64,000 nt of DNA from Candidatus Levybacteria bacterium RIFCSPHIGHO2_01_FULL_36_15b (GCA_001782045.1 MFNK01000003.1:26070-90069), one strand, 5' to 3'. Shown: positions 2,899 to 64,000, counted from the first letter of the stretch. Notes: a model not told the origin generated them from the letters alone. Translations and numbers: made by a program.

Positions 2899-4752
2899 TT
2901 AATTAAGATTTATCCATGCTGGCACATGTCCTTCAGCGTCTCTTACTATTGCAACAAAAGCTTTCTCGGCGGCATCTAGCTTTCTGTTTACTACCTTTAC
3001 ATATTCAGCAAAATCCGAATCAGCAATTCTTGCTGCATGTCTTTCTACTTTTTCCCAAGTTTTTGTTTCATCTTCTGTCCATTTTTCTCTTAGACTTGGG
3101 ACAAGTGCTTCTTCCCGCATTTTTTTTATTCCTACTGCGAATAAGCTTTTTAAATCTTTCACCTGATAAGGTCTGTATTGTTTTTTTCCATGTCTAAGAG
3201 TTCTTACTCTTGATTCGGTCCTTAGAGGTCTTTGAAGCAAAGCAAAATCTATCTTTTCACTTTTTAAAAGCTGATCAATTACGCATCGAATGACTTTTGT
3301 CTCTTCTTCGCTTCTTATTTCGTCTTCGGATGGAACATATGGAGTTTCTCGCAAGGGTACTCTTGCGGCATCTGCTGTTCTTGTAGATCTTTTCAAAGTT
3401 TCTTCATTAGCGCTTTGCAATGTTTCTCCAACTTCAGTTCTTTCTAAAGTTCTAAATTCGTAGGAAGCAGGAATTGCATTTTTCATGTGAGACTCTTTAA
3501 GAGAAACAGTATTTATTAACTGAGCTCCTTGTTCAGACAGTTGTTTATTTATAGAAAATAGTATAGGAGCTATCCTGTTAATAGCTACTTTAATTTCAAT
3601 ACCTGGGTAGGTGAGTTCAGCTAGCTCTGGTTTTGTTTTGAATCCCTCGAGCATATAGCCAAGTACTTCTATGTTTTTTCCACCTGAAATTTTTATTTGT
3701 CTCCCTAGAATTGTAAAGTCTTTTGTTTCTTTAGGTTTAAGTTCTCTTTTTAGGTGTTTTTCGATAGTTTTGGTTTTAGATTTTTTTTCAGCTAATATTG
3801 CCTCGTCCAGTCTTTCAGGTGGAACTTGTTTTATTGTTATTCCGCTTTTTTTTTCTTGCGAGGCAATTGATTTCAAAACGTATGCTCCGTCTCCACGTTT
3901 GCCTTTGTTAAGGTTAATTATATGCAGTTTTTCAGGTTCTAAAATTTCATTAATTTCTGAAATTGCCGCTTGAACATTTTTTGCTCCAGAATATTCTCTT
4001 AGCTCTTTTCCAGAAGCTTCTCCTTGGCTGAGCTTTTCAAGAATTTTAAATCTTATTTTCGTAAATTTGATTTCTTTACCTGTAAAAAGAATATAAGTTT
4101 CGGTCGGTCTTTTATCTTGTTTTATTGATTCAACTGGTTTTTTTGGATTGATTTTATATACAGATTCTCCTTCTATTACAATTCGACTTATTTCATGTTG
4201 GTTTTCTTTGGCTAATTGTCTGGCTCTTGAAAGCACATGTTTTGTAAACCCATCTCGATTTTCTGGGGTATCTTCACCGAAAGCCCCTTTAGTTAAATAA
4301 GAAATAGTTCTTCTTCTTTTTATCAATTGCTCAATCACTTTAGCGTGTTTGCTTTTGTTAACAGTAGCTTCCATACCGTTTCGAAAATGGAGTGTTAGTT
4401 TTTCTCTATGTTTTTCCGGTTTTGCGGGTGTTTGTTCTTTGACTACTTCATGAAGCTCCGGAACAGATACTTCTATTTGCTGTTGGGTAGGAAGTGGTCC
4501 GGAAATCAACTCTTCGAAATTTATTAGCGAAAGCGTTTGGGTTGCGATTTCTTCAATTCTTCCATTATCCAGTGCAATTTTTGCGTCGTTTCCAATTATT
4601 TTGTTTGCTAAATTAAGTTTTTCAACGCTGGAAGTAGCTTGATGAGCTTTTTCAACCAAAACACTTCTAACTCTTGTTCTTACTTCGACAAAGCTACCAA
4701 GTCTTTTGATGTTTCTTTCCGATTCTTGTATCTGTTGTTTTCTTTCAATCAT
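2899..4752 (-). CDS. hypothetical 617-aa K/E/R-rich protein, partner of the GHKL ATPase
   Basis: Long uninterrupted ORF, first gene of a 2-gene minus-strand operon. No Walker, HExxH, PD-(D/E)xK or other motif recognised by eye. Confidence 0.5.
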   Translation of the reverse strand: MIERKQQIQESERNIKRLGSFVEVRTRVRSVLVEKAHQATSSVEKLNLANKIIGNDAKIALDNGRIEEIATQTLSLINFEELISGPLPTQQQIEVSVPELHEVVKEQTPAKPEKHREKLTLHFRNGMEATVNKSKHAKVIEQLIKRRRTISYLTKGAFGEDTPENRDGFTKHVLSRARQLAKENQHEISRIVIEGESVYKINPKKPVESIKQDKRPTETYILFTGKEIKFTKIRFKILEKLSQGEASGKELREYSGAKNVQAAISEINEILEPEKLHIINLNKGKRGDGAYVLKSIASQEKKSGITIKQVPPERLDEAILAEKKSKTKTIEKHLKRELKPKETKDFTILGRQIKISGGKNIEVLGYMLEGFKTKPELAELTYPGIEIKVAINRIAPILFSINKQLSEQGAQLINTVSLKESHMKNAIPASYEFRTLERTEVGETLQSANEETLKRSTRTADAARVPLRETPYVPSEDEIRSEEETKVIRCVIDQLLKSEKIDFALLQRPLRTESRVRTLRHGKKQYRPYQVKDLKSLFAVGIKKMREEALVPSLREKWTEDETKTWEKVERHAARIADSDFAEYVKVVNRKLDAAEKAFVAIVRDAEGHVPAWINLN

Positions 4753-4882: not shown

Positions 4883-6169
4883 TTATTTGAGGATTCGTTG
4901 CAGTGCTACAAGATATGATGCTTCGGGAAGATTTGTATTTTCCCTCTCTGCTGTTTTCCAAACGTTTTCAAAAGCGCTAAACATTAATTTTTCTAATCTT
5001 TTTAAAACATCGTCCTTTTTGTAAGTTTTATTTTTTAAGTTTTGTTCCCATTCAATATAGCTTCCGGCTACTCCGCCCGAATTAGCTAATATATCAGGAG
5101 TTATAAACACGCCCTTTTTAATAAGATAGTGCTTGGCTTTAGGCGTTACAGGACCATTTGCCATCTCAACAATTATTTTTGCTTTAATATTTTGCATATT
5201 GTTTTCTGTAATAACATTCTCAAGAGCTGCAGGAACCAAAATATCAACGGGAAGCTGCAAAAGTTCTTCGTTTGTTATTAGTTGTCCACCTCTTGTATCG
5301 CAAACACCTCCGGCACAGTAGCATCCGTTTAAGCTGCCTTTTTCCATTTTGCACTCATAAACAAGAGGAATATCAAGCGGAATAAAATTTCCCTTCGAAT
5401 CTCTTTTTATAATCCCGCCTTTTGAATCTGACACCGCAACTACTTTAAAGCCAGCCTTGGATGCAAAATCCGCAAAATAGTATCCGACATTTCCAAACCC
5501 CATAATGGCAACAGTCGTATTTTCAGGCTTTAGTTTTAGTTTTTCGGAGAGTTTTTTTAAAATCGCAACTCCGCCAAAGCCGGTTGCTTCGGTTCGGCCG
5601 GAAAGTCCTAATTTTTTCTTTCCCGTAAAAGTTGCATATAACTCATTTTTTGAGATTTGAGATTTATTTTTTAATTTTTGATTTATTTTTACGTATTCAT
5701 CTACCATCCAGTCTATAATTTTAGGATTTGTATTAACATCGGGGGCGGGGATATCTTTTTGGGGACCCAGTATTTCGTAAACCCGTCTTACATATTCGCG
5801 AGATAAGTTTTCCAGTTCTTTTTCGGAAAGTTGTTTTGGATCAACCGCAATTCCGCCTTTTGCTCCACCAAAAGGCACTCCGACTACTGCTGTTTTTAAG
5901 CTCATCCACAACGAAAGCGCCATAACTTCATCTTTATTTACGTTTGGATGAAAACGGAGGCCGCCTTTGTAAGGGCCAAGATTATTGTTGTGCTGGCTTC
6001 GAAATCCTTTAAATGTAATTGTTTCGTCATCAATTTTAATGGGGATTTTGATTTCTAAAATTTTATCGGGTTCTAAAAATTCTTCCAGTTTTTCTTCTGA
6101 GATATTATATTTTTCTCCGACTTCGAAAACTTCCTGCCTTGATTTTTGGTAAATGCTGTTTTCGTTCAT
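4883..6169 (-). CDS. gdhA: NAD(P)-dependent glutamate dehydrogenase
   Basis: GPYKGGLRFHPNVNKDEVMALSLWMSLKTAVVGVPFGGAKGGI signature of Glu/Leu/Phe/Val dehydrogenases; Rossmann GFGNVG. Confidence 0.9.
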   Translation of the reverse strand: MNENSIYQKSRQEVFEVGEKYNISEEKLEEFLEPDKILEIKIPIKIDDETITFKGFRSQHNNNLGPYKGGLRFHPNVNKDEVMALSLWMSLKTAVVGVPFGGAKGGIAVDPKQLSEKELENLSREYVRRVYEILGPQKDIPAPDVNTNPKIIDWMVDEYVKINQKLKNKSQISKNELYATFTGKKKLGLSGRTEATGFGGVAILKKLSEKLKLKPENTTVAIMGFGNVGYYFADFASKAGFKVVAVSDSKGGIIKRDSKGNFIPLDIPLVYECKMEKGSLNGCYCAGGVCDTRGGQLITNEELLQLPVDILVPAALENVITENNMQNIKAKIIVEMANGPVTPKAKHYLIKKGVFITPDILANSGGVAGSYIEWEQNLKNKTYKKDDVLKRLEKLMFSAFENVWKTAERENTNLPEASYLVALQRILK

Positions 6170-6196
6170 TAGTTATACAAAAATAATTTATACTCT

Positions 6197-6595
6197 TTGA
6201 AAATTATTCTGTCAATGGATATAATTACTTTTATGGAAAATGTAACGCTTGATGATTTTAAAAAGGTTGAAATTAAAATTGGTAAAGTAGTACATTGCGA
6301 AAAAGTAGCAGATGCGGATAAGCTTTTAAAGCTGCAAGTTGATTTTGGCGACTTTCAAAGACAAATCATTTCAGCTATCGCCGAGTGGTACAAACCGGAG
6401 GATTTAGAAGGAAAAAAACTTCCTTTTATAGTAAATTTGGAGCCAAGAAACTTTAGGGGAGAAGAATCTCAGGGAATGCTGGTTGCAATGGACACGGAAG
6501 ACCTGCCTCCTGCCAGCGCAGGCTGGGCGCAGCCAGGAAAACCAGTTCTTCTTATCCCCGCCGAAGACGTAAAAGAGGGAACTTTAGTTGTTTAA
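6197..6595 (+). CDS. tRNA-binding domain protein (CsaA/Trbp111/EMAP-like); probable true start at Met13 (6233)
   Basis: DDFKKVEIKIGKVVHCEKVADADKLLKLQVDFGD matches the OB-fold tRNA-binding domain found at the MetRS C-terminus and in CsaA. Confidence 0.7.
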   Translation: MKIILSMDIITFMENVTLDDFKKVEIKIGKVVHCEKVADADKLLKLQVDFGDFQRQIISAIAEWYKPEDLEGKKLPFIVNLEPRNFRGEESQGMLVAMDTEDLPPASAGWAQPGKPVLLIPAEDVKEGTLVV

Positions 6596-6966
6596 AGATT
6601 ATTGTTGACGAAGCAACTTTTATGAAAATGCTGCTCGGCCAAAATACCATTAGTTTTAAGCCAGACATGATATCCTTTTCTTTGTTTATCTACTTTATCT
6701 ATATCTAATGTTTTACTGCACGCGTCGCATGTAAAAGCTTTGAATTCTGTTTTGGATAAATTACTATTTGTTTGGGATCTGAATAGGTTTTCACACGTTT
6801 TACATAAATGAACCTGAAGCTTGTAACCAGCTGTATCGACTAAGTGATGCCATGCCTCATTTATATTTTTTTGACAATTTCCACACCTAAATCCTCGATA
6901 CTCAGGAAGCTCGTTAGGTTGCCATGTCTCAACAATTGCTAAAAGTTTTTGTTGTGTACTGTCCAT
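6592..6966 (-). CDS. hypothetical Cys-rich (zinc-ribbon-like) protein
   Basis: Several CxxC pairs (CGNC, CKTC, CDAC); no other homology recognised. Confidence 0.4.
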   Translation of the reverse strand: MDSTQQKLLAIVETWQPNELPEYRGFRCGNCQKNINEAWHHLVDTAGYKLQVHLCKTCENLFRSQTNSNLSKTEFKAFTCDACSKTLDIDKVDKQRKGYHVWLKTNGILAEQHFHKSCFVNNNL

Positions 6967-7010
6967 TATCCAATTCTAGCAAATTAGAAAAATATGTTAT
7001 ACTCAAAAAA

Positions 7011-8243
7011 ATGAGGTACAGTCAACTTTTTCCAAAAACGCAAAAAGAAGCACCCAGGGGGGCAGAGGCGGAAAATCACAAACTTTTAGTACGAGCGGGT
7101 TTTATAGACCAGCTTATGGCAGGAAGTTTTACTCTTTTACCACTTGGTTTTAGAGTTGTTGAAAAAATAAAACAAATAATCCGCGAAGAATTAAACACAA
7201 CGGGTGCGCAAGAAATGCTAATGCCTTTAATGCATCCTAGAGAAATTTGGAACGAAACAGGAAGATGGGAAAGCGCCAAAGAAGTAATGTATCAGTTTAA
7301 AAAGGATAATAAGGAATTTGCTCTGTCTTTTACACATGAGGAAATAATTGTTGACTTAATAAGAAAGCACAATATAAAACTTTCGGATTTTCCACTTAAG
7401 CTTTACCACTTTTCAACAAAATTTAGGCACGAATTACGAGCCAAAAGCGGAATTTTGCGCGGCAGAGAATTTTTAATGAAGGATTTATACAGCGCTCATC
7501 TAACAGAGGATGATATGTATAAATATTACAACGACGTAACTTCCGCTTATTTAAAAATATTTAAAAGAATTGGACTTGATGTTAAGGTTGTAGAAGCATC
7601 AGGTGGGGTATTTACAGATAAAAACAGCCACGAATTTCAAGTTTTATCAAGCGTTGGAGAAGATACCATTTTTTACTGTGACACTTGTGACTTTGCTCAA
7701 AACGATGAGATAGCAAAAGTTAAAGTAGGAGACAAATGCCCAAACTGCGATGGAAAAATCTTGACTTCAAAAGCAATTGAAGTTGGAAATATTTTTCCGC
7801 TTGGAACAAAATACAGCGAAAAAATGGGAGCTTTATATACAGACGAAAAAGGAAATCAAATGCCAGTCTGGCTTGCAAGCTATGGCATAGGGCCAACTAG
7901 GACCTTAGGAACTTTAGTTGAAGTATACAATGATGAAAAGGGAATAATTTGGCCAAAAAGCGTTTCTCCATTTGAAGTTCATCTGGTTCATATAGAAGAT
8001 CCCTCTACAGAAGAAACAGCAGAAAAAGTTTATAACACGCTTGTTGAGAATAAGGTTGATGTTTTATGGGATGATAGAAAAGACGCAAGCGCAGGAGAAA
8101 AATTTGCAACCGCGGACTTAATTGGAATTCCAATAAGGTTGGTTGTTTCTAAAAGAACAGAAGGTAAAATAGAATTTAAGACAAGAAATTCTGAAAAAGA
8201 AGAACTGCTTAGTTTAGAAGAAGTTTTAGAAAAATTAAAATAA
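7011..8243 (+). CDS. proS: prolyl-tRNA synthetase (compact class II form, with internal Cys4 zinc ribbon)
   Basis: Class II aaRS motifs (FRHELRAKSGILRGREF; GIGPTR); CDTCDF...CPNCDG insert. Start chosen at in-frame ATG 7011 (MRYSQLFPKTQKE); the track ORF starts further upstream at 6924. Confidence 0.85.
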   Translation: MRYSQLFPKTQKEAPRGAEAENHKLLVRAGFIDQLMAGSFTLLPLGFRVVEKIKQIIREELNTTGAQEMLMPLMHPREIWNETGRWESAKEVMYQFKKDNKEFALSFTHEEIIVDLIRKHNIKLSDFPLKLYHFSTKFRHELRAKSGILRGREFLMKDLYSAHLTEDDMYKYYNDVTSAYLKIFKRIGLDVKVVEASGGVFTDKNSHEFQVLSSVGEDTIFYCDTCDFAQNDEIAKVKVGDKCPNCDGKILTSKAIEVGNIFPLGTKYSEKMGALYTDEKGNQMPVWLASYGIGPTRTLGTLVEVYNDEKGIIWPKSVSPFEVHLVHIEDPSTEETAEKVYNTLVENKVDVLWDDRKDASAGEKFATADLIGIPIRLVVSKRTEGKIEFKTRNSEKEELLSLEEVLEKLK

Positions 8244-8651
8244 GCCAAATACTTTAGCCCAAATTATTGCATAAGCCGCAAAAAAGATAGTTCCCCCAAG
8301 CAAGAATACAATAGCCATAAAGCTGTGCCCTTTAGGCTTTTGCATACTTTGCATGTTGCCGTCTGTTTGCGTATAAATTGTAGGAGGAGGTTGTGGTGTT
8401 TGAACAAACGGATTTTGGGTAGGAAGGGGAGAAGGAGTCGGATTTGCGGGTTGGGGCGGTTGCACGGGAATACTTTGAATAGCGGGCTGCTGTTCCTCTG
8501 CCGGTTGAGTTTGCATAACGGGTTGATTTTGTGACTGCTGTGGTTGAGGTTGCGTTGCAGCTGTAGCTTGTGGGTTAAAATTAGTTCCCATAACCCTATC
8601 GTATGCTTCTTTGAGTTTTGGGTCTAAATCATTTACATTTTTTGGATTCAT
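8235..8651 (-). CDS. hypothetical Pro/Gln-rich protein with C-terminal TM anchor
   Basis: Low-complexity QPQPQQSQNQP... region followed by a hydrophobic C-terminus (AIVFLLGGTIFFAAYAIIWAKVFGLF). Confidence 0.4.
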   Translation of the reverse strand: MNPKNVNDLDPKLKEAYDRVMGTNFNPQATAATQPQPQQSQNQPVMQTQPAEEQQPAIQSIPVQPPQPANPTPSPLPTQNPFVQTPQPPPTIYTQTDGNMQSMQKPKGHSFMAIVFLLGGTIFFAAYAIIWAKVFGLF

Positions 8652-8720
8652 GCAATTGTCCTGAGCCCGTCGAAGGGGGCAGTAATTAATTATATCTGTT
8701 TTGGGGGAATATTTGTCAAG

Positions 8721-9203
8721 CTATCTATCTTCAAGCTGCGGATCTAATCCTTTAAAACCATTTTCATCGGTGGCTAGTTTAAAAACTAAAAAGTGAAGAT
8801 GAGGTTCGGTCATCCATCCCGAATTTCCAGTTACAGCTAGTTGCTGACCAGCTTTGACGAAATCTCCCTTTTTTACTTTTATAGATCCCTTGGCAAGATG
8901 AACCATTTGAGAAAATTCATCATTTTGATGGCCAATTGTTATGTAATTTGCGTCGTCTTTGAATTCTTCGGTAGGACCAAATCTGCTATGGCTATCGTCG
9001 GTATCCCTTACTATTCCGTCTAAAGGTGCAATAACCGGCGTACCTAATTTCATGGCATAATCAATTGCTCCTCGAAATGGCCCGACGTGAGCTGGTCCTT
9101 CTGTTTCCACCAAAGTTACGACAGTTTCCCTAGGAAAGGGTTTCTGATATTTGTTTTTGGTCTTTTCCAATGGTGGCAGTTCATTTTCCCTATGTTCTGA
9201 CAT
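8721..9203 (-). CDS. M23 family (LytM-type) metallopeptidase
   Basis: HxxxD ... GNSGWMTEPHLHF motif arrangement typical of peptidase M23. Confidence 0.8.
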   Translation of the reverse strand: MSEHRENELPPLEKTKNKYQKPFPRETVVTLVETEGPAHVGPFRGAIDYAMKLGTPVIAPLDGIVRDTDDSHSRFGPTEEFKDDANYITIGHQNDEFSQMVHLAKGSIKVKKGDFVKAGQQLAVTGNSGWMTEPHLHFLVFKLATDENGFKGLDPQLEDR

Positions 9204-11205: not shown

Positions 11206-12591
11206 TTGCTTATGGTATTTTACAGAACTTACAGACCTCAAAAAATTTCGGAACTAGATAGCGCCGATTTGAGAGAACGTTTATATTCTATTTTTACTAA
11301 AAATTTTGACACCGCACATGCATATCTTTTTTCCGGACCCAAGGGCCTTGGAAAAACATCGGCTGCAAGAATTGTTGCAAAGGTTATTAATTGTGAAAAA
11401 CACGAAAAACTTAAGAAAGCAAAGCTTACCGAAGCGGAAATCGAACCCGATAACAAATGTTGGCAATGCACATCCATTACATCGGGGACAAATTTTGATG
11501 TCTTAGAAATAGACGGTGCTTCAAATAGGGGAATTGATGAAATAAGAGATTTAAAAGAGAAAATAAATCTTCTTCCCGGTAAAGCTGCAAGAAAAGTTTA
11601 CATAATTGATGAAGTGCATATGTTGACATCTGAGGCCTTTAACGCTCTTTTGAAAACCTTAGAAGAGCCTCCCGCTCACGCTGTTTTTATTTTATGTACG
11701 ACAGAGCTGCATAAAGTTCCCCAAACAATTGTTTCAAGATGCTTTAGGGTAGATTTTAAAAAAGCAACGGATGAGGAAATTGAAAGATCGCTTTTAAGAA
11801 TAATAAAGGGAGAATCGATAAAGATTGAAAAGCAAGCAATATCAGCAATTGCTAAAATAAGCGACGGAAGCTTTAGAGATGCTGCAAAGATTCTTGAGGA
11901 ATTAAGCTTAACTTCGGGCAAAAAAACAATTACTCAAGATTATGTTTCCGAAAAATTTAACACTTTGGGAATTGAGTTGGCAATCGAGCAATTTATAAAT
12001 AGCTTAAACACAAAAGATACTAAAAAGGGTTTTGAAGTAGTTTCAAAGCTCGCCAAACAAGGAATTGATTTTAAATTCTTTATCGAGAATCTATTAGAAA
12101 AATTTCATTTAATGCTCTTGGGCAAATTAGGAGTAGGGCCTACATTAGAAGATAAATTTGAGATTTCGGAGATAAAAACAATACTTGAGCTTTTAGCAAA
12201 GGCTCATTCGGAAACTAAATATGCGGTTTTACCACAATTACCACTCGAACTCATGATTGTTGAATGGAGCGAAAGAGCTCAGAGTTTAGAGTTCAGAGTT
12301 CAGAATTCACAAGGTAATCAGGTCGCTGCGGGTCGATTACCTTCCGCTGGCAAATTAGATAGTTTTTATAACGATTTTATAAACGAGGTAAAAGTGCATA
12401 ATCATTTAATAGCTGGCGTACTTAGAAGTTGCGAGATAGAGCAGACAAACGGAAGTATGCAAATTATTGCAATTTCAAAGTTTCATAAAGAAAAACTAGA
12501 GGAATCAAAAACATTTAAAATTCTACAAGATGTAGCAGAGGCTTTAGTTGGAAAAAAAGTTAAATTAGATATAATACTTAGGCCCAGTTAA
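11206..12591 (+). CDS. dnaX: DNA polymerase III subunit gamma/tau
   Basis: Walker A GPKGLGKTSAARIVAK, Cys module NCE...CWQC, DEVHML Walker B, sensor motifs. Confidence 0.85.
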   Translation: MLMVFYRTYRPQKISELDSADLRERLYSIFTKNFDTAHAYLFSGPKGLGKTSAARIVAKVINCEKHEKLKKAKLTEAEIEPDNKCWQCTSITSGTNFDVLEIDGASNRGIDEIRDLKEKINLLPGKAARKVYIIDEVHMLTSEAFNALLKTLEEPPAHAVFILCTTELHKVPQTIVSRCFRVDFKKATDEEIERSLLRIIKGESIKIEKQAISAIAKISDGSFRDAAKILEELSLTSGKKTITQDYVSEKFNTLGIELAIEQFINSLNTKDTKKGFEVVSKLAKQGIDFKFFIENLLEKFHLMLLGKLGVGPTLEDKFEISEIKTILELLAKAHSETKYAVLPQLPLELMIVEWSERAQSLEFRVQNSQGNQVAAGRLPSAGKLDSFYNDFINEVKVHNHLIAGVLRSCEIEQTNGSMQIIAISKFHKEKLEESKTFKILQDVAEALVGKKVKLDIILRPS

Positions 12592-13897: not shown

Positions 13898-14512
13898 ATG
13901 ACAATACCAACAACAATTAAAAAACTAACAGAGTCTTTTGAAAAGCTTCCCGGTGTTGGTCCTAAAACCGCACAGCGGCTTACTTTTTATCTTTTACATG
14001 TTCCGCAAGGGCAGCTTGATACATTTGCCCAAAGTCTTTCAAATTTAAAGAAGGATACATTAATATGCACAAACTGTTTTATGACGGACGAAAAAAATCC
14101 CTGCAGCATATGTTCCGATAAATCAAGAGATGAATCTTTGATTTGTGTAGTAGAGGAGCCACTGGACGTTCTTGCTTTGGAAAAAAATGGAAAGTACAGA
14201 GGCTTATACCATGTTTTACACGGTAAAATTGATCCGCTTAATAATATTGGGCCGGACGAAATTTATATATCGCCGCTTCTAAAAAGACTTAAAACTCATG
14301 CAATTAGCGAAATTATTCTTGCAACTAATCCAACTATGGAAGGTGAAGCAACAGCAATGTATATTGCAAAGCAAATTAAAAATCAAATCTCAAATCTCAA
14401 ATCTCAAATTAAAATAACCAGAATTGGAAGAGGCTTGCCTGTTGGAGGGGACTTGGAATATGCAGATGATGTTACGCTGCAACGCGCAATGGAGGGGAGA
14501 AGTGATTTTTAA
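13898..14512 (+). CDS. recR: recombination protein RecR
   Basis: KLPGVGPKTAQRL helix-hairpin-helix, C4 zinc finger CTNC...CSIC, Toprim domain. Confidence 0.9.
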   Translation: MTIPTTIKKLTESFEKLPGVGPKTAQRLTFYLLHVPQGQLDTFAQSLSNLKKDTLICTNCFMTDEKNPCSICSDKSRDESLICVVEEPLDVLALEKNGKYRGLYHVLHGKIDPLNNIGPDEIYISPLLKRLKTHAISEIILATNPTMEGEATAMYIAKQIKNQISNLKSQIKITRIGRGLPVGGDLEYADDVTLQRAMEGRSDF

Positions 14513-17487: not shown

Positions 17488-19144
17488 TGTGATTCATTCC
17501 AAACTCCAAAGAAGAATTAGTCTTTTTTAGCGGGTTGAAAATATTTAAGGGATCAAAGATTTGTTTTGTTTTTTCAAATAAAGCATAAACTTCTTCGCCG
17601 TACATCTGTTTTAAATAGAAACTTCTTGCCAATCCGTCGTTGTGTTCGCCCGTAGTTGAACCGTTATATGAAAATACAAGATCATAAACTTCTTTTTCGA
17701 GCTTTGGAATTATTTCCCTTTGAGATTGCTCATGTAAATTCATAAGTGGAATAATATGAAAATTACCGTCTCCTAAGTGTCCTGCAATGGTATAAATAAG
17801 ACTAGGATATTTCGATAAGATTTCATTTAGTTTTGGCAAAAATTCTTGTAAATACTTTGGTTCTACAACAAAATCGTCAATAAACGGGGCAGTGTGCTTA
17901 TCTTTTATTTTCTCTCTTAAAAGGTTAAAACTCTCTCTTCTTATCAGCCAGTATTTCTTAGATTGTTTTTCGTTTCCCGCAACACGCGTGTTCAAATTAA
18001 ACGGCTTAAGCTTTTCCTTTAAAGTCTTTATTTTATCTATTAAATCATCAAAATTATTTCCTGCAAACTCTATTTGTAAAATAAGTTTTGGAACCCCATT
18101 TTTTAATACCATCATAAATTCTGGAATAAAGTGAAATGCAGTAGAGATTATGTTTGCTGCACCCATCTTCTTTGCAAATTCCGGAAAAAACTTAACAGCA
18201 AGCTTAAGGGTATTATCATCGTAGGTTTCAAAACTTTCTGGTTCAAGCGGCAAGACTGTATTTATAATTTCCCCAAGATTATTCATGTCTTTTTCTTCCA
18301 AAAAAACAACAAGCATTTCGCTATGTTTCTTAACCGGAATAAGCTCAAGACTTGCCTGGGTCATTATCCCTAGAGTTCCTTGGGCTCCTACAAAAAGCTT
18401 AGTTAAATCAAAAATATTTTTTTCTTTGTCGTATACATTCCATAAAAAATATCCCGCACTGTTTTTAGAAACCTTGGGTTTGGCGCTTTGTAAAAGATCA
18501 AAGTTTTTAGTAATCAAGGCATGTATGCCTCTGTAAACCTCGCCTTCAAATGAGCTCAATTGAAGTTTCTCTGCAAGTTCTCTGTCGGATAGCGGTTTAA
18601 ACTCATACTCGTTTCCGTCCGCTAAAATCATATTTAGTTTTTTAACATACTTTTCCGTTTTTCCGTATTCTAGCGATTTTTCTCCGCCGGAATTATTATT
18701 TACAATTCCGCCAATTGCACAAATATCTTTAGATGCGGGGTAAGAGGGGAATATGAGATTATGTTGCAGAGTAAATTTTTCAAAATCACGGTAATATACG
18801 CCTGGCTGTGTTGTTGCAACATTTCCCTCAATTCCGATTATTTTATTAAAATGCTCCATAAAAGAGACGATTATTGATTCATTTAAGGGTCCTCCGCTCA
18901 TATCCGTGCCTGCGGCTCTTGCGGTTATTGAAAGCGAAGGATTTTGATTCTTATTTGTTTTAACAAATTTAACAATATTTTTTAAATCCTCTGTATCTTG
19001 CGGAAAAACTACAAAACTTGGTTTAACTTCAAAAATACTTGCATCGTGGTCAAACTTTTTTAGAGTTTCTTCATCTTCGTATGTTTCACCTTTAATTACT
19101 TCTTTTAATTTGCTAAACAAATTTTTATTCATTTTGATTACCAA
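17471..19144 (-). CDS. FAD-linked oxidase (GlcD / D-lactate dehydrogenase-like)
   Basis: PCMH-type FAD-binding N-terminus (ARAAGTDMSGGP...), C-terminal FAD-oxidase domain; 557 aa. Confidence 0.7.
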   Translation of the reverse strand: MVIKMNKNLFSKLKEVIKGETYEDEETLKKFDHDASIFEVKPSFVVFPQDTEDLKNIVKFVKTNKNQNPSLSITARAAGTDMSGGPLNESIIVSFMEHFNKIIGIEGNVATTQPGVYYRDFEKFTLQHNLIFPSYPASKDICAIGGIVNNNSGGEKSLEYGKTEKYVKKLNMILADGNEYEFKPLSDRELAEKLQLSSFEGEVYRGIHALITKNFDLLQSAKPKVSKNSAGYFLWNVYDKEKNIFDLTKLFVGAQGTLGIMTQASLELIPVKKHSEMLVVFLEEKDMNNLGEIINTVLPLEPESFETYDDNTLKLAVKFFPEFAKKMGAANIISTAFHFIPEFMMVLKNGVPKLILQIEFAGNNFDDLIDKIKTLKEKLKPFNLNTRVAGNEKQSKKYWLIRRESFNLLREKIKDKHTAPFIDDFVVEPKYLQEFLPKLNEILSKYPSLIYTIAGHLGDGNFHIIPLMNLHEQSQREIIPKLEKEVYDLVFSYNGSTTGEHNDGLARSFYLKQMYGEEVYALFEKTKQIFDPLNIFNPLKKTNSSLEFGMNHIRQNW

Positions 19145-20117
19145 TCAACCTGGTAACTGCTTGTTCTATAGCTACTTCGTCCATTCCATATTTTTTAATT
19201 AACTCAAAAGGCGCTCCCGATTCTGCGAATGTATCTTGTAAACCAATAAATTCCATTGGAGTAGGGTAATGCTTTGCTAAAACCTCTGCAATTGTACCGC
19301 CAAGTCCACCGGCAACCTGATGATCTTCTACTGTAACCACTTTTCCAGCCTCTTTGGCGAGCTTAATTATGGTTTTTGAATCAATAGGTTTTATTGTTGA
19401 GACATTAGCAACCTGAACCTTGATTCCTTTTTCTTCTAAATTTTTTGCGGCAAGAAGAGCATAATAGAGCATGTAACCGGTTGCAAAAATAACAGTTTTT
19501 GGAGCTTCATTTATCCAGTAAACTTCAACTTCCTTACTAAACGGAGTGTCTTTTGTTGTAATTATCGGTGTTTTATCGCGGGTAAATCTTAAATAAACTG
19601 GACCCCTAATTTCTGCTGATTTTAAGGTTGCTTTTTTTGCCTCAATAGCATCGCAGGGAACAAAAACAGAAATATTAGGCCAAGCTCTTGTTATTGCAAT
19701 ATCCTCGGTAGCCTGATGCGTCGCGCCGTCAGGTCCTGTCATAATACCTGAGTGATGTCCTGCTATTTTTACATTTGAGTTGCCATAAATAATGGTAGTT
19801 CTAATTGTTTCCCAGTTTTTTCCGGGCGAAAATGTCGCATAAGAAGAAATAAATGGAATTTTTCCGCTCAATCCAAGACCGGCCGCGATTGCTGCCATGT
19901 TTTGTTCGGCAACCCCAACTTCAAAAAAACGTTGCGGAAACTTTGCTTCAAATCCGTCCGTTCTTGTGCTTTCTGATAAATCGGCGGTTAAAACAACTAC
20001 ATTAGGATTTGATTCACCAAGTTCAACCAAAGCCTCACCAAAGCCGTCTCTTGTTGCTTTCTGCTCAACATCCTTGTCAAAAAGTTTTTGGTTTAAGTGT
20101 AAATCAGGATTTAACAT
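19125..20117 (-). CDS. transketolase, C-terminal (pyrimidine-binding) subunit
   Basis: Split-transketolase C-terminal subunit pattern (GEDGATHQ..., GFEAKFPQRFFEVG). Confidence 0.85.
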   Translation of the reverse strand: MLNPDLHLNQKLFDKDVEQKATRDGFGEALVELGESNPNVVVLTADLSESTRTDGFEAKFPQRFFEVGVAEQNMAAIAAGLGLSGKIPFISSYATFSPGKNWETIRTTIIYGNSNVKIAGHHSGIMTGPDGATHQATEDIAITRAWPNISVFVPCDAIEAKKATLKSAEIRGPVYLRFTRDKTPIITTKDTPFSKEVEVYWINEAPKTVIFATGYMLYYALLAAKNLEEKGIKVQVANVSTIKPIDSKTIIKLAKEAGKVVTVEDHQVAGGLGGTIAEVLAKHYPTPMEFIGLQDTFAESGAPFELIKKYGMDEVAIEQAVTRLIGNQNE

Positions 20118-20151
20118 AATGAAAGACTGCTCGCCTCGTAAGTTTTATTTT

Positions 20152-20262
20152 GCTCGGGGTCCTGCCCCAACTTTCCCTCCCGCCAGTGCTCACTCGAATA
20201 TTTCTTTCAGAAATAACTCGCTGTGCGCTGTCGGAAGCCCTTCCTGTTGTGTCACCCCTCGC
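20152..20262. repeat. copy A of a ~110-nt repeated, probably structured element (possible ncRNA or leader), about 35 nt upstream of the tktB start on the minus strand
   Basis: About 85% identical to 62435-62544. Shared core CCCGCCAGTGCTCACTCGAATATTT(T)CTTTCAGAAA(A)TA; internal hairpin 20199-20215. Confidence 0.4.
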
Positions 20263-20296
20263 AAATTTCTTAATTCTAGATTCTAAATTCATAATT

Positions 20297-21163
20297 CTAT
20301 TGATGTTCCGAGATTATTCTTCCTTGTAAAGTACGTAATTCTTTTAATGCTTTTTTTGCCTCTTCTTGATTTGGTGGTTTTCCATGCCAGTGAAAATCTT
20401 TTTCCATAAATGTAACTCCTTTTCCTGGAATTGTATGAGCAATAACAACGGATGGTTTTTCAAAAATCTTTTTTGCAAGTCCTAAAACGTTTATAAATTC
20501 GGATATGTTATTTCCATCCGCTTCAAAAACTTCCCAGTTAAAAGATGTGTATTTTTCCTTTAAGGGTTCAAGTGGCATTATGTTTTCGGTAAAGCCGTCT
20601 ATTTGGATATTGTTTCTATCCAAAATTAAAGTTAAGTTGTTTAACTTATGTTTTCCTGCAAACATTAAAGCTTCCCAAGTGTTTCCTTCCTGATGCTCAC
20701 CGTCTGAAGCAATTACGTAAGTATGATATTTTTTGTTGTCTAGTTTTGCAGCTAGTGAAATACCAATGGCTTGTGAAATTCCTTCACCTAAAGGACCCGA
20801 AGTTGTTTCAAGTCCGGGAAGTGAGTCTCTATGAGGGTGTCCCTGAAGACGCGAATCTATTTTTCGTAAAGTTTTAAGTTCTTCAATCGGGAAATACCCG
20901 CTTTGAGCCATAGTTACATAGCGAATAGGGCATATGTGGCCGTTTGATAAAACTAGTCTGTCTCGGTCGTCCCAATCCGGATTTTTAGGATTGTGATTTA
21001 ATACATGAAAGTATAATGCGGTAAAAATATCAGCCATTCCCAAAGGTCCTGCAGAATGCCCCGACCCGGCTTCAAGAAGCATTTTTATAAGAAGTTCCCG
21101 TGCTTGATTTGCTTTTAGCTCAAGCTCTTTTAATTTTTCATCTGTTAGGGCAGGTATATCCAT
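20297..21163 (-). CDS. transketolase, N-terminal (TPP-binding) subunit
   Basis: GHSAGPLGMADI, GDGE...EG thiamine-diphosphate-binding motifs. Confidence 0.85.
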   Translation of the reverse strand: MDIPALTDEKLKELELKANQARELLIKMLLEAGSGHSAGPLGMADIFTALYFHVLNHNPKNPDWDDRDRLVLSNGHICPIRYVTMAQSGYFPIEELKTLRKIDSRLQGHPHRDSLPGLETTSGPLGEGISQAIGISLAAKLDNKKYHTYVIASDGEHQEGNTWEALMFAGKHKLNNLTLILDRNNIQIDGFTENIMPLEPLKEKYTSFNWEVFEADGNNISEFINVLGLAKKIFEKPSVVIAHTIPGKGVTFMEKDFHWHGKPPNQEEAKKALKELRTLQGRIISEHQ

Positions 21164-44399: not shown

Positions 44400-44482
44400 G
44401 GGCGAGTGGCGGAACGGTATACGCGATAGTCTCAAAAACTATTGGCTGCAAGGCCTTGAGAGTTCGAATCTCTCCTTGCCCA
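44400..44482 (+). tRNA. tRNA-Leu (anticodon CAA), class II with long variable arm; CCA not encoded
   Basis: Acceptor GGGCGAG/CTTGCCC, D stem GCG/CGC, anticodon stem ATAGT/ACTAT with loop CTCAAAA, variable arm GGCTGCAAGGCC, T arm GAGAG-TTCGAAT-CTCTC, discriminator A. TATAAT at 44383-44388. Confidence 0.8.
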
Positions 44483-44569
44483 CAGTTTGAGTTATGAGCA
44501 CAATTAAGCTATACTTTCAACTATGATACATTCAACTTCGTTCAGTATTATGGTGAGGAGACTCGAACC

Positions 44570-56484: not shown

Positions 56485-57402
56485 ATGAATGAACTGTCCG
56501 GGCTTATAGATCAATTTTTGGAATATCTCGAAATAGAGCGCAACTGTTCTAAACTAACAATCCGCGATTATAGACATTACCTGGAAACCTTTAATAAATG
56601 GTACGCTGAAAAAAATATCGAAGATTTGGATTTGGCAACTGTTAGAAAATACAGGGTTTTTCTTGCCAACCGCGAAGATAATAAAGGATTAACTTTAAAA
56701 AGAGTAACTCAAAACTATTATGTAATAGCGCTTAGAAGTTTTCTTAGGTTTCTTATAAAGAATGATTTTCAAACTTTAGAGCCATCAAAAATTGATTTGC
56801 CAAAAACAGAAAGCAGAAACTTAAAATTTTTATCAAGCGAACAGATAGATAGATTGGTAACATCTGTTGATACATCAAAGGAAGAAGGATTGAGAGATAG
56901 GGCAATTTTGGAACTCCTCTTCTCCACCGGGCTGCGCGTTTCGGAACTAACAAAGTTAAATCACGAACAAATTAATTTTGAAAGGCGCGAGTTTGGAGTT
57001 ATAGGTAAAGGTTCGCGCTTGCGACTTGTTTTTATTTCAGACAGAGCAGCTGATTGGATTAAGCGATATTTGGACGAACGGAAAGATGTTTTTAAGCCAT
57101 TATTTATTAGGTACAGCGGAAAAGTTGTGGAAGACGATAGCGGAGAAAAAATGAGGCTTACCGCAAGAAGTGTTGAGCGTATAGTTAAAAAATATGTGCG
57201 TTTAGCAAGAATTCCGGTTGATGCTACGGTTCATACCCTAAGGCACAGTTTTGCAACTGATCTTCTGCATAACGGAGCAGATTTAAGAAGTGTACAAGAA
57301 ATGCTTGGGCACAAAAATATTGCAACGACCCAAATTTATACACACATAACAAATCCTCAACTGCGTGATACACACCGTTCCTTCCATAGCGGAAATAAGT
57401 AG
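56485..57402 (+). CDS. tyrosine site-specific recombinase XerC/XerD
   Basis: R...HxxR...Y catalytic pattern: HTLRHSFATDLL...GHKNIATTQIYTH. Confidence 0.85.
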   Translation: MNELSGLIDQFLEYLEIERNCSKLTIRDYRHYLETFNKWYAEKNIEDLDLATVRKYRVFLANREDNKGLTLKRVTQNYYVIALRSFLRFLIKNDFQTLEPSKIDLPKTESRNLKFLSSEQIDRLVTSVDTSKEEGLRDRAILELLFSTGLRVSELTKLNHEQINFERREFGVIGKGSRLRLVFISDRAADWIKRYLDERKDVFKPLFIRYSGKVVEDDSGEKMRLTARSVERIVKKYVRLARIPVDATVHTLRHSFATDLLHNGADLRSVQEMLGHKNIATTQIYTHITNPQLRDTHRSFHSGNK

Positions 57403-59956: not shown

Positions 59957-62425
59957 CTAGAATTCCTCGATGCAGGTGGCAGAGGCAACGCTATCGCCTT
60001 GTTTACTGAAGCGCATTATTATTACACCCTGTGTTGATCTTGAAAGTTTTGGAATTGAGTTAATATCCATTTTTACAATTTGTCCTTTTCGGGACGTTAC
60101 TATCAGCTCTTTTGCCTCCATTGGAATAACCTGAGTTGCTGCTATTTTTCCAGTTTTTTGAGTTACTTCGGCAACTTTTACTCCTTTTCCTCCTCTTCCT
60201 TGTTTTGGAAACTGGTCAATCGCGGTTTTCTTGCCGTATCCATTTTGCATAATTGTTAGAATAAATGGCTTATTTCCTTTTGTAACTATATCCATTTGTA
60301 TAACTTCGTCTTCTTTTCCAATAGAAATTCCCCTTACTCCCATTGTGTTTCTTCCCATTGGCCTAACCTGTTTTTCGTTAAACCTAATGCTTTTTCCGTT
60401 TCTTGTAAATAAGAAAATATCGTCATTGTCTGCCGTTAAATTGCTCCATACAAGCTCGTCTCCTTTTTCAAGTTTTATGGCCAATATTCCGCTTCTTCTA
60501 ATATTTTCAAATTCAGAGATTTTACTTTTCTTTATTGTTCCATTTCTTGTTGCAAGAGTTATGTAAGTAAAGTTGTCCTTTTTTCCGTAAGTTATAAAGG
60601 ATTCGACTTTTTCCCCTGCTTCTATATTTAATAAATTAACAATTGCTGTTCCCTTACTGGTTCTGCTACTTTCAGATATTTCGTAAACTTTGGTTTGGTA
60701 AACTTTTCCTTTATTTGTAAAGAATAATAAATTATCGTGAGTTTCGGCATAAGTAATATTTAGAATTGTGTCTTCTTCTTTTGTAGTCATTCCTATTATT
60801 CCCTTTCCCCCTCTTTGCTGAGTTTTAAAGCTTAAGGTTGATTGTCTTTTTATATATCCGGTGTCGGTTAGGGTTATAACCGTGGGTTCATTTTGAATTA
60901 AATCCTCTTCGGAAAATTCACCGACCTTTCCTTTAAACACTTTCGTTCTTCGCGCGTCGTTATACCTTTCTTTTAGTTTTATTAACTCGTCTTTTATAAC
61001 AGTTAGCATTTTTGCAGGGTGAGCAAGTAAGTCTTCCAAGTAGGCTATCGTTTCTTTAACCATTTTATATTCGTCTTCAATCTTTTGTCGCTCAAGGGCC
61101 GCTAGTCTTCGAAGCTGCATATCTAAAATTGCGGTTGCTTGAATTTCGGATAATTTAAACTTTGTCATCAAATTTTTCTTTGCCTCATCCTGATCACTGG
61201 AGGCCCGAATTGTTTTTATTACTGCGTCAATATTATCAACTGCAATTTTTAAACCCTCTAATATATGAAGCCTAGCCTGTGCTTGCTTAAGTTCAAATTC
61301 GCTTCTTCGTTTAACAACCAAATAGCGATGCTTCAAAAACTCTTCCAAAATTGTTTTTAAATTTAAAGTTTGGGGGGTTCCGTCAACTAAAGCAACAATA
61401 TTTGCAGGAAAAGTAGTTTGCAGGCTTGTTTGTTTAAATAAATTATTAAGAATTTTTTTAGGAGTTGCGTCTCTTTTTAGCTCTACTACTATTCTTATTC
61501 CGTGTCTGTCCGATTCATCCCTTAAATCTGAAATGCCGTCTATCTTTTTCTCTTTAGCAAGTTCCGCAATGCGCGCAACCAGTAACGCTTTATTGACCTG
61601 ATATGGTAGTTCGGTAATTATAATGGCTGATTTTCCTTGTCCGATATCTTCGATTTCTGCTTTTCCTCTAATTATTATTCTTCCTCGCCCGGTCGTATAA
61701 ACATTTTTTATTTCTGTCCAGTCGTAAATTGCTCCTGCAGTTGGAAAATCAGGGCCTTTAATAAATTCTAAAAGTTCATCAACCGTAACGTCGCTTTTAA
61801 TTGAAAATGGTTCAAGTTCTATTTTAGCCTTGCTAATTATATGAGCTATTCCATCAATTACCTCGCTTAGGTTGTGAGGCGGAATTTTGGTAGCCATACC
61901 AACGGCAATGCCCTCAGAACCCATAAGAAGAAGATTTGGTAGTAAGCTTGGTAAAAAAACGGGTTCTTTTAATCTTGCGTCAAAATTTGGAATATAATCT
62001 ACCGTTTCCTTTTCAATATCTAAAAGCATCTCCGTTGTAATTGCTGCCATTCTTGCCTCTGTATATCTCATTGCAGCAGGAGGATCTCCATCCATAGAAC
62101 CAAAATTCCCCTGCCCATCAATTAAGGGGTAACGCATAGAAAAGTCCTGCGCCATGCGAACTAGTGAATCGTATATAGGAACATCGCCGTGAGGATGATA
62201 TTTTCCCATTACTTCTCCAACAACAGTTGCACTTTTTGAATACTTGGCTGCATGAGTAAGTCCAATTTCATGCATGGCAAAAAGAATTCTTCTGTGAACC
62301 GGTTTTAATCCGTCTCTTACATCAGGAAGCGCGCGGGAAACGATAACGCTCATTGCGTAATCCAAATACGCACGTTTCATTTCTGTTGATATCTCAGTCT
62401 GTTGAAGTTTACCTATTTCAGCCAT
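59957..62425 (-). CDS. gyrA: DNA gyrase subunit A
   Basis: AAMRYTE active-site Tyr region, QRGGKG GyrA-box, C-terminal beta-pinwheel repeats. Confidence 0.9.
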
Positions 62426-62434
62426 GTCGTTTAT

Positions 62435-62544
62435 GAGCGGGTCCTGCCGCTAGTTCCTTCCCGCCAGTGCTCACTCGAATATTTTCTTTCAGAAAATAGC
62501 TCATTCCGCGCTGTCAGGAGTCCTTCCCTTGCGTCACCCCCGCC
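62435..62544. repeat. copy B of the ~110-nt repeated structured element, 10-12 nt upstream of the gyrA start (minus strand)
   Basis: About 85% identical to 20152-20262; hairpin 62480-62498 (8-bp stem, UUC loop). Confidence 0.4.
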
Positions 62545-62550
62545 TTTTAT

Positions 62551-64000
62551 TTACATAAGAAAGGAGGCGATCAAAAGAGCAACGATATTTAAAACCTTAA
62601 TCATTGGATTGATCGCAGGTCCTGCAGTATCTTTGTATGGATCGCCTACCGTATCTCCGGTTACGGCAGCTTGGTGAGCAAAGCTTCCCTTGCCCCCCAA
62701 GTTTCCTTCTTCTATATATTTCTTTGTGTTATCCCATGCGGCTCCGCCTGTTGTCATAGAAATAGCAATAAATAGTCCTGTTACAATACTTCCTATTAAA
62801 AGTCCTCCTAAGGCTTGCGCTCCAAGTAAAAATCCTACTGCAATAGGCGCAATTAATGTAATTGCAGCTGGTAAAATCATTTCCTTAATTGCTGCTTTTG
62901 TTACTATGTCTACTGCTTTTCCGTACTCAGGTTTTACTTTTCCGCTCATTAGCCCCTTTATTTCTCTAAATTGTCTTCTTACCTCATCTACTATCGAAAC
63001 ACTTGCCTTTCCTACTGCTTCCATCGCCAAGGCTGCAAATAAATACGGAAGTGCTCCTCCTATAAAAAGTCCTACCAAAACAGCAGGATCAGAAAGAGAA
63101 AATGCTACAGTAATGCCCTTTGCGCCTTTTGCTAACTCTTGTGTATAGCTTGCAAATAAAACTAAAGCGGCAAGTCCGGCACTTCCTATTGCATAAGCTT
63201 TTGTTACTGCTTTTGTCGTATTGCCTACTGCATCTAAAGGATCCGTAACGTCTCTTACTTTTTTGTCCAGTCCTGCCATTTCTGCAATTCCTCCCGCATT
63301 ATCTGTAATTGGTCCGAATGCATCAATTGCAACTATTATTCCTGCCAAGGAAAGCATGCTCATGGCTGCTGCTGCAACCCCATAAAGCCCGGCTAGTGTG
63401 TATGAAGCAAGTATTGCGCCCGCAATAAGAAGAATAGGCGCAAAAGTTGCCTTCATAGAAACTGCAAGACCTGCAATTACATTTGTTCCGTGTCCGGTTG
63501 AAGATGCATTTGCAATTGTTTTAACAGGAGAAAACTTTTTAGATGTAAAGTATTCTGTAATTACTACCATACCAATTGTTACACCAAGTCCAATAAGTAA
63601 GCAGTAAAAAAGATTTAAAGATGGAATTCCTAGTCCAGTTTGAAATACATAATTTGTCAAAAGCCAAAACCCACCTACAGAAACAAGTAGCGCGACAATT
63701 AATCCCTGATATAAGCCTTTCATAATAGAGTTTCCGGATATTTTTACAAACCAAGTCCCGACAATACTTGCAACTATAGAAACTGCGCCTATTAACATTG
63801 GAAAATATAAAATGCTTGTATTGTTTGGAAACAAAAGATTTCCTAAAATCATTGCAGCAACTGCGGTAATAACATAAGTTTCAAATAAATCTGCTGCCAT
63901 TCCGGCATCATCCCCCACGTTATCCCCTACTAAATCGGCAATTACCCCGGGGTTTCTTGGATCATCTTCCGGAATTCCTTTTTCTATTTTTCCAACCATG
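62551..64000 (-). CDS. hppA: H+-translocating pyrophosphatase (membrane V-PPase), 5' part beyond window
   Basis: [32 protein letters not shown] and other V-PPase motifs; the ORF runs off the window end. Confidence 0.8.

Follow-up and report, generated by a model that had tools for sequence, protein, structure and literature searches.

The DNA analysed here is a stretch of 64,000 nt (the window) of Candidatus Levybacteria bacterium RIFCSPHIGHO2_01_FULL_36_15b (GCA_001782045.1, MFNK01000003.1:26070-90069). Two of its intergenic regions contain a copy of the same element, at positions 20152-20262 (copy A) and 62435-62544 (copy B), which confirms in the sequence what an initial annotation had proposed. 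Both copies lie on the minus strand and 5′ of a start codon, as was also proposed; the distance is 34 nt to the ATG of tktC (copy A) and 11 nt to the ATG of gyrA (copy B). The genes around copy A, tktN and tktC, represent a split transketolase, and the TktC of the window is 100% identical to a protein of Candidatus Levybacteria RIFCSPLOWO2_01_FULL_36_13. Copy B is preceded by the gene for an H+-translocating pyrophosphatase (H+-PPase), which is complete in locus L042, where it encodes 676 aa. In the region 62353-62425 the gene callers placed the start of gyrA at Met25 (798 aa); the ATG at 62425, which has no Shine-Dalgarno sequence, gives a protein of 822 aa and restores the conserved N-terminus. 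All these features are listed in Table 1.

Table 1. Positions in the window of the two copies of the element, of their parts and of the neighbouring features
Feature	Position (nt)	Strand	Description
tktC, transketolase C-terminal subunit	19125..20117	-	Pfam; downstream neighbour of copy A
Copy A	20145..20269	-	Between tktN and tktC; covariance model 125 bits, E 3e-30
Copy A core, 3′ arm	20178..20196	-	CGAGUGAGCACUGGCGGGA on the minus strand; same in both window copies
Copy A apical hairpin	20199..20216	-	UUAUUUCUGAAAGAAAUA; variable tip, with the 'compensatory indel' of the initial annotation
Copy A core, 5′ arm	20222..20234	-	CCGACAGCGCACA; partner of the 3′ arm, with A.G and C.A mismatches conserved
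14-nt tandem duplication	20267..20299		TTCTAAATTCATAA x2.4; abuts copy A on the tktN side; Tandem Repeats Finder, junction alignment
tktN, transketolase N-terminal subunit	20297..21163	-	Pfam Transketolase_N, E 3e-59; upstream neighbour of copy A
gyrA	59957..62425	-	Pfam; downstream neighbour of copy B; ATG 11 nt from the element
Copy B	62427..62551	-	Between the H+-PPase stop and the gyrA ATG; covariance model 95.8 bits, E 1e-22
Copy B core, 3′ arm	62459..62477	-	Shared-word comparison and alignment
Copy B apical hairpin	62480-62498		Counterpart of the copy A apical hairpin (20199..20216)
Copy B core, 5′ arm	62505..62517	-	CUGACAGCGCGGA
H+-translocating pyrophosphatase gene	62551..63999	-	Cut by the window end; Pfam H_PPase, E 2e-195; upstream neighbour of copy B

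The similarity of the two copies had been put at ~85% over ~110 nt. The copies are indeed alike, but a global alignment gave identical bases in 91 of 114 columns (80%), and the element is somewhat longer, ~117-125 nt with its basal pairs, as delimited by the covariance-model matches of Table 1. The two copies have in common an exact 25-mer, CCCGCCAGTGCTCACTCGAATATTT, of which 0 occurrences were expected by chance (100 shuffles of the window), and beyond the element itself they share nothing. In both cases the minus strand of the window is the G-rich strand of the element, GGGGUGAC...CAGGACCCC. Copy B is the more diverged one: it lost 1 base in the 3′ purine loop and has a frameshift and a stop in the frame that, in the copies located inside genes, is the 'coding' one (see below). 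In ~81 kb of the home genome there were only these 2 copies, a modest number.

A short hairpin had been reported in each copy, in which an extra U on one side is matched by an extra A on the other. Both the hairpin and this compensatory indel are found in the sequence, the minus-strand apices being UAUUUCU-GAAAG-AAAUA in copy A and UAUUUUCU-GAAAG-AAAAUA in copy B. In fact, this hairpin is only the tip of one imperfect, rod-like hairpin that spans the whole element (~115 nt). On the minus strand the MFE is -42 kcal/mol for copy A (z = -4.4) and -34.7 kcal/mol for copy B (z = -2.4). The family as a whole, including the copies from other genomes described below, consists of short palindromic repeats of ~117-135 nt that fold into hairpins, and across the copies the MFE was put at -37 to -55 kcal/mol.

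From its base, the rod starts with a basal helix of 2-8 bp that is different in each copy (for example, UUGAUCGC/GCGAUCAA in L020 and AAAAUUAC/GUAAUUUU in L002), followed by GGGGU/ACCCC and then by a hypervariable helix of 6-7 bp (AGUCGU/AUGACU, GCUGGU/ACCGGC, AAUCAU/ACGAUU, AGCAGU/ACUGCU, CACGACU/AGUCGUG and others). After this helix there is a purine-rich internal loop, GGAAGGG opposite GGGAAA, and next a nearly invariant core helix, in which YCCYGACAGCGCGCA faces UGAGCACUGGCGGGAG and the A.G and C.A mismatches are fixed. The apex, in other genomes, has 25-75 nt of unrelated sequence and is free in length. The 'compensatory indel' sits in this most variable part of the element. The GGAAGG and CCUUCC strings, which had been likened to Shine-Dalgarno and anti-Shine-Dalgarno sequences, are present, but they correspond to the conserved purine-rich internal loop and not to ribosome-binding sites.

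The pairing was evaluated on 12 copies. Standard pairs occupied 93% of the pair cells, compared with 81% in shuffles, and 11 pairs had double-sided changes; the covariation score was 0.354 vs 0.122, and 0 of 500 shuffles reached 0.354. When the partners were slid by 1-3 columns, the pairing fell to 36-45%. From the shuffle and sliding tests we therefore considered the pairing to be under constraint. The compensatory change had been interpreted as selection on pairing, and this holds across the whole hairpin, but a palindromic DNA element predicts pairing equally. On the GGGGUG strand there were 13 G.U pairs vs 6 A.C pairs, and this strand folded better than its complement in 10 of 13 copies; such an asymmetry is weak, too mild to decide between an RNA and a single-stranded DNA hairpin.

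The 5′ arm of the core was invariant in 11 of the 12 copies, and this block was absent from all the search patterns. The 3′ arm was identical in the window copies and in the copies recovered elsewhere by means of that word; the invariance of this 18-19-mer is partly by construction, because the same word was used for searching. The copies found only by the covariance model keep GAGCACUGGCGGGAGG, and the core variants GAGCGAGC and GACUGAGC, corresponding to ASARS and ASAQS in translation, occur in copies found by the model or by the peptide only.

A search for further copies had been suggested as a check, and copies were indeed found in other genomes by word scans, by the covariance model and through the peptide in LeuRS (see below). 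With the exact-word scans and the covariance model we obtained 13 distinct copies, from at least 8 genomes or contigs and in unrelated contexts. The first scan, in which the invariant 19-mer was run against one genome per GTDB species, gave L001 and L004 (Candidatus Levybacteria RIFCSPHIGHO2_01_FULL_37_17), L002 (another MAG) and 1 chance match. An 18-mer scan of metagenomes added 5 distinct copies (L010, L016, L019, L020, L021) amid GC-rich chance matches, and the covariance model recovered copies without the exact word, namely 2 more in L020 and 1 and a half in L044. At the DNA level, the dispersed copies are divided into 4 intergenic and 9 in-ORF ones. There is no fixed gene association, as the neighbours differ for every copy, and the intergenic copies are found in either orientation: the one of L002 is antisense to both neighbours and the one of L004 lies between divergent genes.

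BLAST searches of phage and plasmid collections gave no match. We also considered phage contigs of IMG/VR as carriers and rejected them, since two contigs share a 17-mer only: in L005 (5434-5450) and L006 (3983-3999) the sequence ccctcactggtt..ggtagCCAGTGAGTGAGCACTGGCGGG holds the core 17-mer and no other part of the element, and forms a different small hairpin. In the literature searched, which covered part of the journals, no prior description of such an element in CPR/Patescibacteria was found; to this extent, we consider the element as a previously undescribed palindromic repeat family of the Microgenomates (CPR).

Eight of the 12 copies obtained by the strand-blind DNA search lie within long ORFs, precisely in dnaX (L001), fpg (L010), trpS (L016), a gene with three S1 domains (L019), obg (L020), leuS (two copies, L020) and comEC (L021). 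Each of them has the GGGGUG strand antisense to its host gene and is inserted in frame, in the same codon phase and with 0 stops even in the variable apex. The predicted translation is (R/A)GPVSxFPPASA(H/R)S-variable-LRAVGxPSTxAT(P/R). If the three frames had equal odds, 8 copies would be found in one frame by chance with a probability of ~(1/3)^7. In the conserved arms, as evaluated on the L010 copy, all 3 frames of the host orientation are stop-free, hence the use of a single frame reflects selection and is not forced by stops; a peptide read in either of the remaining frames would be hydrophobic or rich in cysteine. Of the 4 intergenic copies, 3 (copy B, L002 and L004) are frameshifted or have stops in the peptide frame.

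By a simple pattern search, the peptide was found in 16 of 120 Microgenomates LeuRS homologues, with 20 insertions at ~8 alignment sites; the length of LeuRS in this sample goes from 798 to 1122 aa. One carrier cluster is represented by a Candidatus Curtissbacteria protein. Several of the insertion sites are common to proteins only 50-60% identical, which suggests an old age and vertical inheritance for many copies. In larger protein sets, a peptide-profile search (5.8 billion proteins) returned 3 candidates with shared words, of which 0 scored, and phmmer with the copy A peptide (1.84 billion representatives) returned two unrelated repetitive proteins only; both searches are too insensitive for an insert of 36-42 aa.

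When the L020 LeuRS (P0123) was modelled with AlphaFold (pTM 0.80), both element peptides fell in segments with pLDDT < 50 (578-627 and 877-914), and the blocks around the inserts had pLDDT values of ~88-96. In Fpg, TrpRS and ComEC the Pfam domains are stretched, yet still detected. The insert positions are therefore predicted to be compatible with the host protein fold. At the nucleotide level, the codons CGC GCT GTC GGG (RAVG) and GGT CCT GTC (GPV), which are outside every search word, show almost no synonymous change in hosts with 36-46% GC, and the helices beside them are saturated with change. The near lack of synonymous change points to a constraint on the nucleotides and not on the peptide alone.

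Other repeats were observed in the coding sequences of these genomes. The LeuRS (5750-8749) and Obg (3055-4266) genes of L020 have extra low-complexity runs (KSTKSFKSTKGTTSFKK, DTRGTFDTRDTL, ARDTLNSRDTL and EISNFKFQISN), and one such run, at residues 759-780 of the LeuRS model, also has pLDDT < 50. In the window, heptamer tandem repeats are found in frame inside genes at 5645-5690, 12274-12309 and 14383-14409. These heptamers are (GAGATTT/AAATCTC)n in the linker between the domains of glutamate dehydrogenase (VKINQKLKNKSQISKN), (AGAGTTC)x5 in the DnaX linker (RAQSLEFRVQNS), with a similar array in the dnaX of L035, and (TCAAATC)x3.9 in RecR (NQISNLKSQI); the array of gdh and that of recR are mutual reverse complements. 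Such arrays constitute a second type of in-frame repeat expansion of these genomes, distinct from the element.

We compared the tktN-tktC junction with that of four syntenic relatives (L035-L038), which have the same gene order and a TktC 80-85% identical to that of the window. In these relatives the site is empty: the tktN stop either overlaps the tktC ATG (TAATG) or is 3 nt away from it, and a covariance-model scan of 85 kb of their sequence found no copy of the element. At the same position the window has 180 extra bases, represented by copy A and an AT-rich spacer. This insertion is longer than the element because it also includes the 14-nt duplication of Table 1, which supplies part of the extra AT-rich spacer, and ~38 nt on the other side. 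The dnaX of L001 contains a full copy, that of L035 (DnaX 70% identical) has at the same place only the end CCCTTCCGTCCGTGCCACCCC, that is the P1/P2/GGAAGGG end, and at the corresponding place of L037 nothing recognisable was found. Presence and absence of the element are thus polymorphic at orthologous sites (tkt and dnaX), and in the leuS of L044 there is a 3′ half-copy. From the empty tkt site and the remnants in dnaX and leuS, we therefore considered the element as gained and later eroded by deletion. For a remnant in the window's own dnaX, the similarity was too weak to call. As many copies are apparently old, recent activity is indicated by the empty tkt site only. In L010 (1543-1570) there is an isolated second 3′ end, GCGGCAGGACCCG, 10 bases past the complete element, which is read in the Fpg frame as TGPAA beside RGPVS and, judging from its sequence, would be either what is left of an older copy or a partly duplicated one.

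From the comparison of these junctions, copy A appears to have abolished the TAATG overlap of stop and start codon by which tktN is coupled to tktC in the relatives. After copy A, tktC has no obvious Shine-Dalgarno sequence at normal spacing. The window copies would be passengers inside operons, each adding a stable hairpin to the transcript, and these added hairpins may affect mRNA coupling, stability or processing. Speculatively, a tight hairpin might hold the upstream stop and the downstream start near enough for re-initiation.

No transposase or other mobilising gene adjoining any copy was found in the window or at the other loci, and the rve integrase of L044, 9 kb from the copy, is unrelated. 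The only recombinase-type gene of the window encodes a XerC/D-like tyrosine recombinase (56485-57402, Phage_int_SAM_1 and Phage_integrase), for which no link to the element was found. In ~330 kb of loci the covariance model detected no genes flanked by element half-sites. Most copies have CGAG (or GC) at both ends, which may belong to the element, with no clear target-site duplication; in the same way, ATTATG, present close to the two ends of the tkt insertion of 180 nt, is not separable from the element.

Among the readings of the initial annotation there were a small ncRNA and a cis-regulatory leader or riboswitch. A structured non-coding RNA of this kind, either a multi-copy sRNA gene or a leader acting on tktC and gyrA, would agree with the strong fold, with the clear covariation, with the excess of G.U over A.C pairs and better fold of the GGGGUG strand, and with the sense position of both window copies just 5′ of start codons. 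However, the strand asymmetry is weak, and no gene association is conserved, since the neighbours differ everywhere; the constant sense position 5′ of a conserved gene set that is typical of a riboswitch was not found, given that 8 of the 12 copies discovered by DNA search are in ORFs with the GGGGUG strand antisense, and that the L002 and L004 copies are oriented as described above. Moreover, the same tkt operon exists in close relatives without the element, and promoter and terminator scans around both window copies gave nothing relevant. That the element resembles no recognised RNA family had been stated on inspection, and Rfam 15 agrees: the only gathering-score match in the window is one tRNA, and nothing relevant was found on the element even at E <= 10. 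This tRNA-Leu(CAA), at 44400-44483, is the sole Rfam/ARAGORN match in the window. SRP RNA, 6S, RNase P, tmRNA, Y RNA, k-turn and known ribozyme cores were considered by eye and rejected, with no Rfam match; in the case of SRP RNA, this is because its conserved apical part is the variable part here. We consequently abandoned the ncRNA, leader and riboswitch readings as very improbable.

The reading as a mobile protein module, with the peptide GPVSxFPPASA(H/R)S...LRAVGxPSTxAT(P/R) functional in the hosts and the palindrome incidental, would account for the single frame of all the in-ORF copies, for the conservation of the peptide and for its long persistence at shared LeuRS sites, but we judged it improbable: intergenic copies exist, 3 of 4 being out of frame or with stops, the equally conserved synonymous positions point to a nucleotide-level constraint, the peptide is predicted to be unstructured, the hosts are functionally unrelated, and the helix covariation gives correlated but arbitrary amino-acid changes. 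An intervening sequence, removed from the transcript or from the protein in an intron-like or intein-like way, would be favoured by a hairpin that brings its two flanks together, and CPR bacteria are known for unusual insertions in rRNA genes. Nevertheless, removal at the RNA level needs no single orientation, frame or freedom from stops, yet all of these were observed, the insert has only ~40 aa and no intein motifs, and the element is also found in intergenic DNA, hence this explanation is highly unlikely. A recent local segmental duplication in this genome, with random indels, would be in line with just two copies in the 64-kb window, but it has practically no chance of being correct, because the element is present in many genomes besides this one and in many contexts; furthermore, the two copies of the window are 20% different and have nothing in common past the element. 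The initial annotation had indicated that a lack of further copies, a lack of expression and a similarity explained by a recent segmental duplication, with no covariation, would speak against it; as to copies, covariation and duplication, we found further copies, covariation and no segmental duplication.

The third proposed reading, a miniature mobile repeat, is the one in agreement with the empty site of the four syntenic relatives and with the many independent insertion sites. Precisely, the window pair are, with high probability, copies of a family of non-autonomous selfish palindromic repeats of the Microgenomates (CPR/Patescibacteria). The element enters new sites and persists between genes in either orientation; within genes, it persists in a single orientation and frame, those giving a stop-free, flexible and hydrophilic peptide rich in Pro, Ser, Ala and Thr, and old copies decay through deletion. 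Recognition by a trans-acting enzyme that mobilises the element would take place at the invariant asymmetric core; such an enzyme probably acts on the folded single strand and is not encoded near any copy here. The base pairing would be kept since the folded form is what gets mobilised or tolerated.

Alternatively, the core may be almost invariant in long-resident copies because it serves the host, and not because it is a signal for transposition. In a joint reading, which we consider rather unlikely, the element would be part of an active, structure-dependent mobile system particular to CPR, the enzyme of which recognises the core hairpin as folded ssDNA or RNA, with the copies kept by selection and not merely tolerated. 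Possible host-level roles under this active-system reading are to hold a stop and the next start together after the splitting of a coupled gene pair, to give antisense RNAs within essential genes, or to provide flexible linkers reshaping many essential CPR proteins.

Among the known systems, the closest analogue of the selfish palindromic repeat proposed here is represented by the Rickettsia palindromic elements (RPEs). In the account given in PMC10969869 (citing Ogata et al. 2000, 2002), RPEs are palindromes of ~150 bp, intergenic and, unusually often, in frame in unrelated housekeeping genes, and each RPE family encodes a conserved peptide (PMC10969869, citing Ogata et al. 2000 Science 290:347, Ogata et al. 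2002). The Microgenomates element is similar in being a hairpin-forming palindrome of ~100-150 bp with no coding capacity of its own and no known transposase, dispersed in intergenic DNA and in ORFs, in frame in unrelated housekeeping genes to which it adds a conserved peptide, with insertions that seem compatible with the host fold. It agrees with RPEs in all the functional features compared, namely size, hairpin, dispersal, in-frame insertion and predicted-tolerated positions. In contrast with RPEs, which belong to Alphaproteobacteria, it is found in CPR, and the likeness is functional, with no homology claimed; it has a strict mismatch-bearing core with flanking hypervariable covarying helices and an apex of free length, it is found in ORFs in one orientation and one frame only (in this sample), and it reaches two copies per gene (LeuRS).

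PMC10969869 also reviews bacterial MITEs and the repeats related to them (ERIC, Correia/NEMIS, RUP, BOX, Nezha). The element resembles them as a small, non-autonomous, dispersed inverted repeat, co-transcribed with its neighbours and forming RNA hairpins, and some MITEs are occasionally intragenic; as for terminal inverted repeats, its ends (GGGGUG.../...GGACCCC) and its variable basal pairs are complementary. It differs from MITEs because it has no parent insertion sequence in ~330 kb of loci and no demonstrable target-site duplication, because it is one hairpin throughout and not a unique core between terminal inverted repeats, and because ~2/3 of the copies from the DNA search are inside ORFs. 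With the REP/BIME-RAYT (TnpA-REP) systems and with the palindrome-associated elements derived from IS200/IS605 it shares an imperfect hairpin with conserved mismatches and a mild strand asymmetry, and such a hairpin would suit the recognition of folded ssDNA by a trans-acting HUH enzyme. However, REPs are 20-40 nt long, extragenic and with a GTAG head, and the element is larger and often intragenic; no RAYT/TnpA gene was seen in the window or at any locus, no Y1 transposase domain is present among the annotated genes of the window, and the Rfam IS605/HEARO-type models did not match the element. It has in common with the cis-regulatory RNAs and sRNAs of Rfam a conserved secondary structure with covariation, but it matches no family, has no fixed context or orientation and occurs inside coding sequences.

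The genomes of CPR/Patescibacteria measure ~1 Mb, are streamlined and are considered to contain little mobile DNA. On the basis of the analogy with RPEs, we consider the element as a new family of RPE-type palindromic repeats in a lineage where these were not expected. It means that a selfish palindrome is found repeatedly in essential CPR genes (aminoacyl-tRNA synthetases, Obg, DnaX, Fpg and a protein similar to ribosomal protein S1), where it is predicted to be read through, and it accounts in part for the unusual differences in length among CPR proteins and for their inserts that do not align. Annotation and phylogenomic pipelines should hence mask the inserts of the element, and the covariance model, like the peptide signature, offers a way to seek the missing mobilising enzyme. 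In-frame 'protein-coding palindromes' have been described as a peculiarity of Rickettsia, and the Microgenomates represent an independent case; its occurrence in a second lineage with reduced genomes suggests that the phenomenon is tied to the reduced-genome lifestyle.
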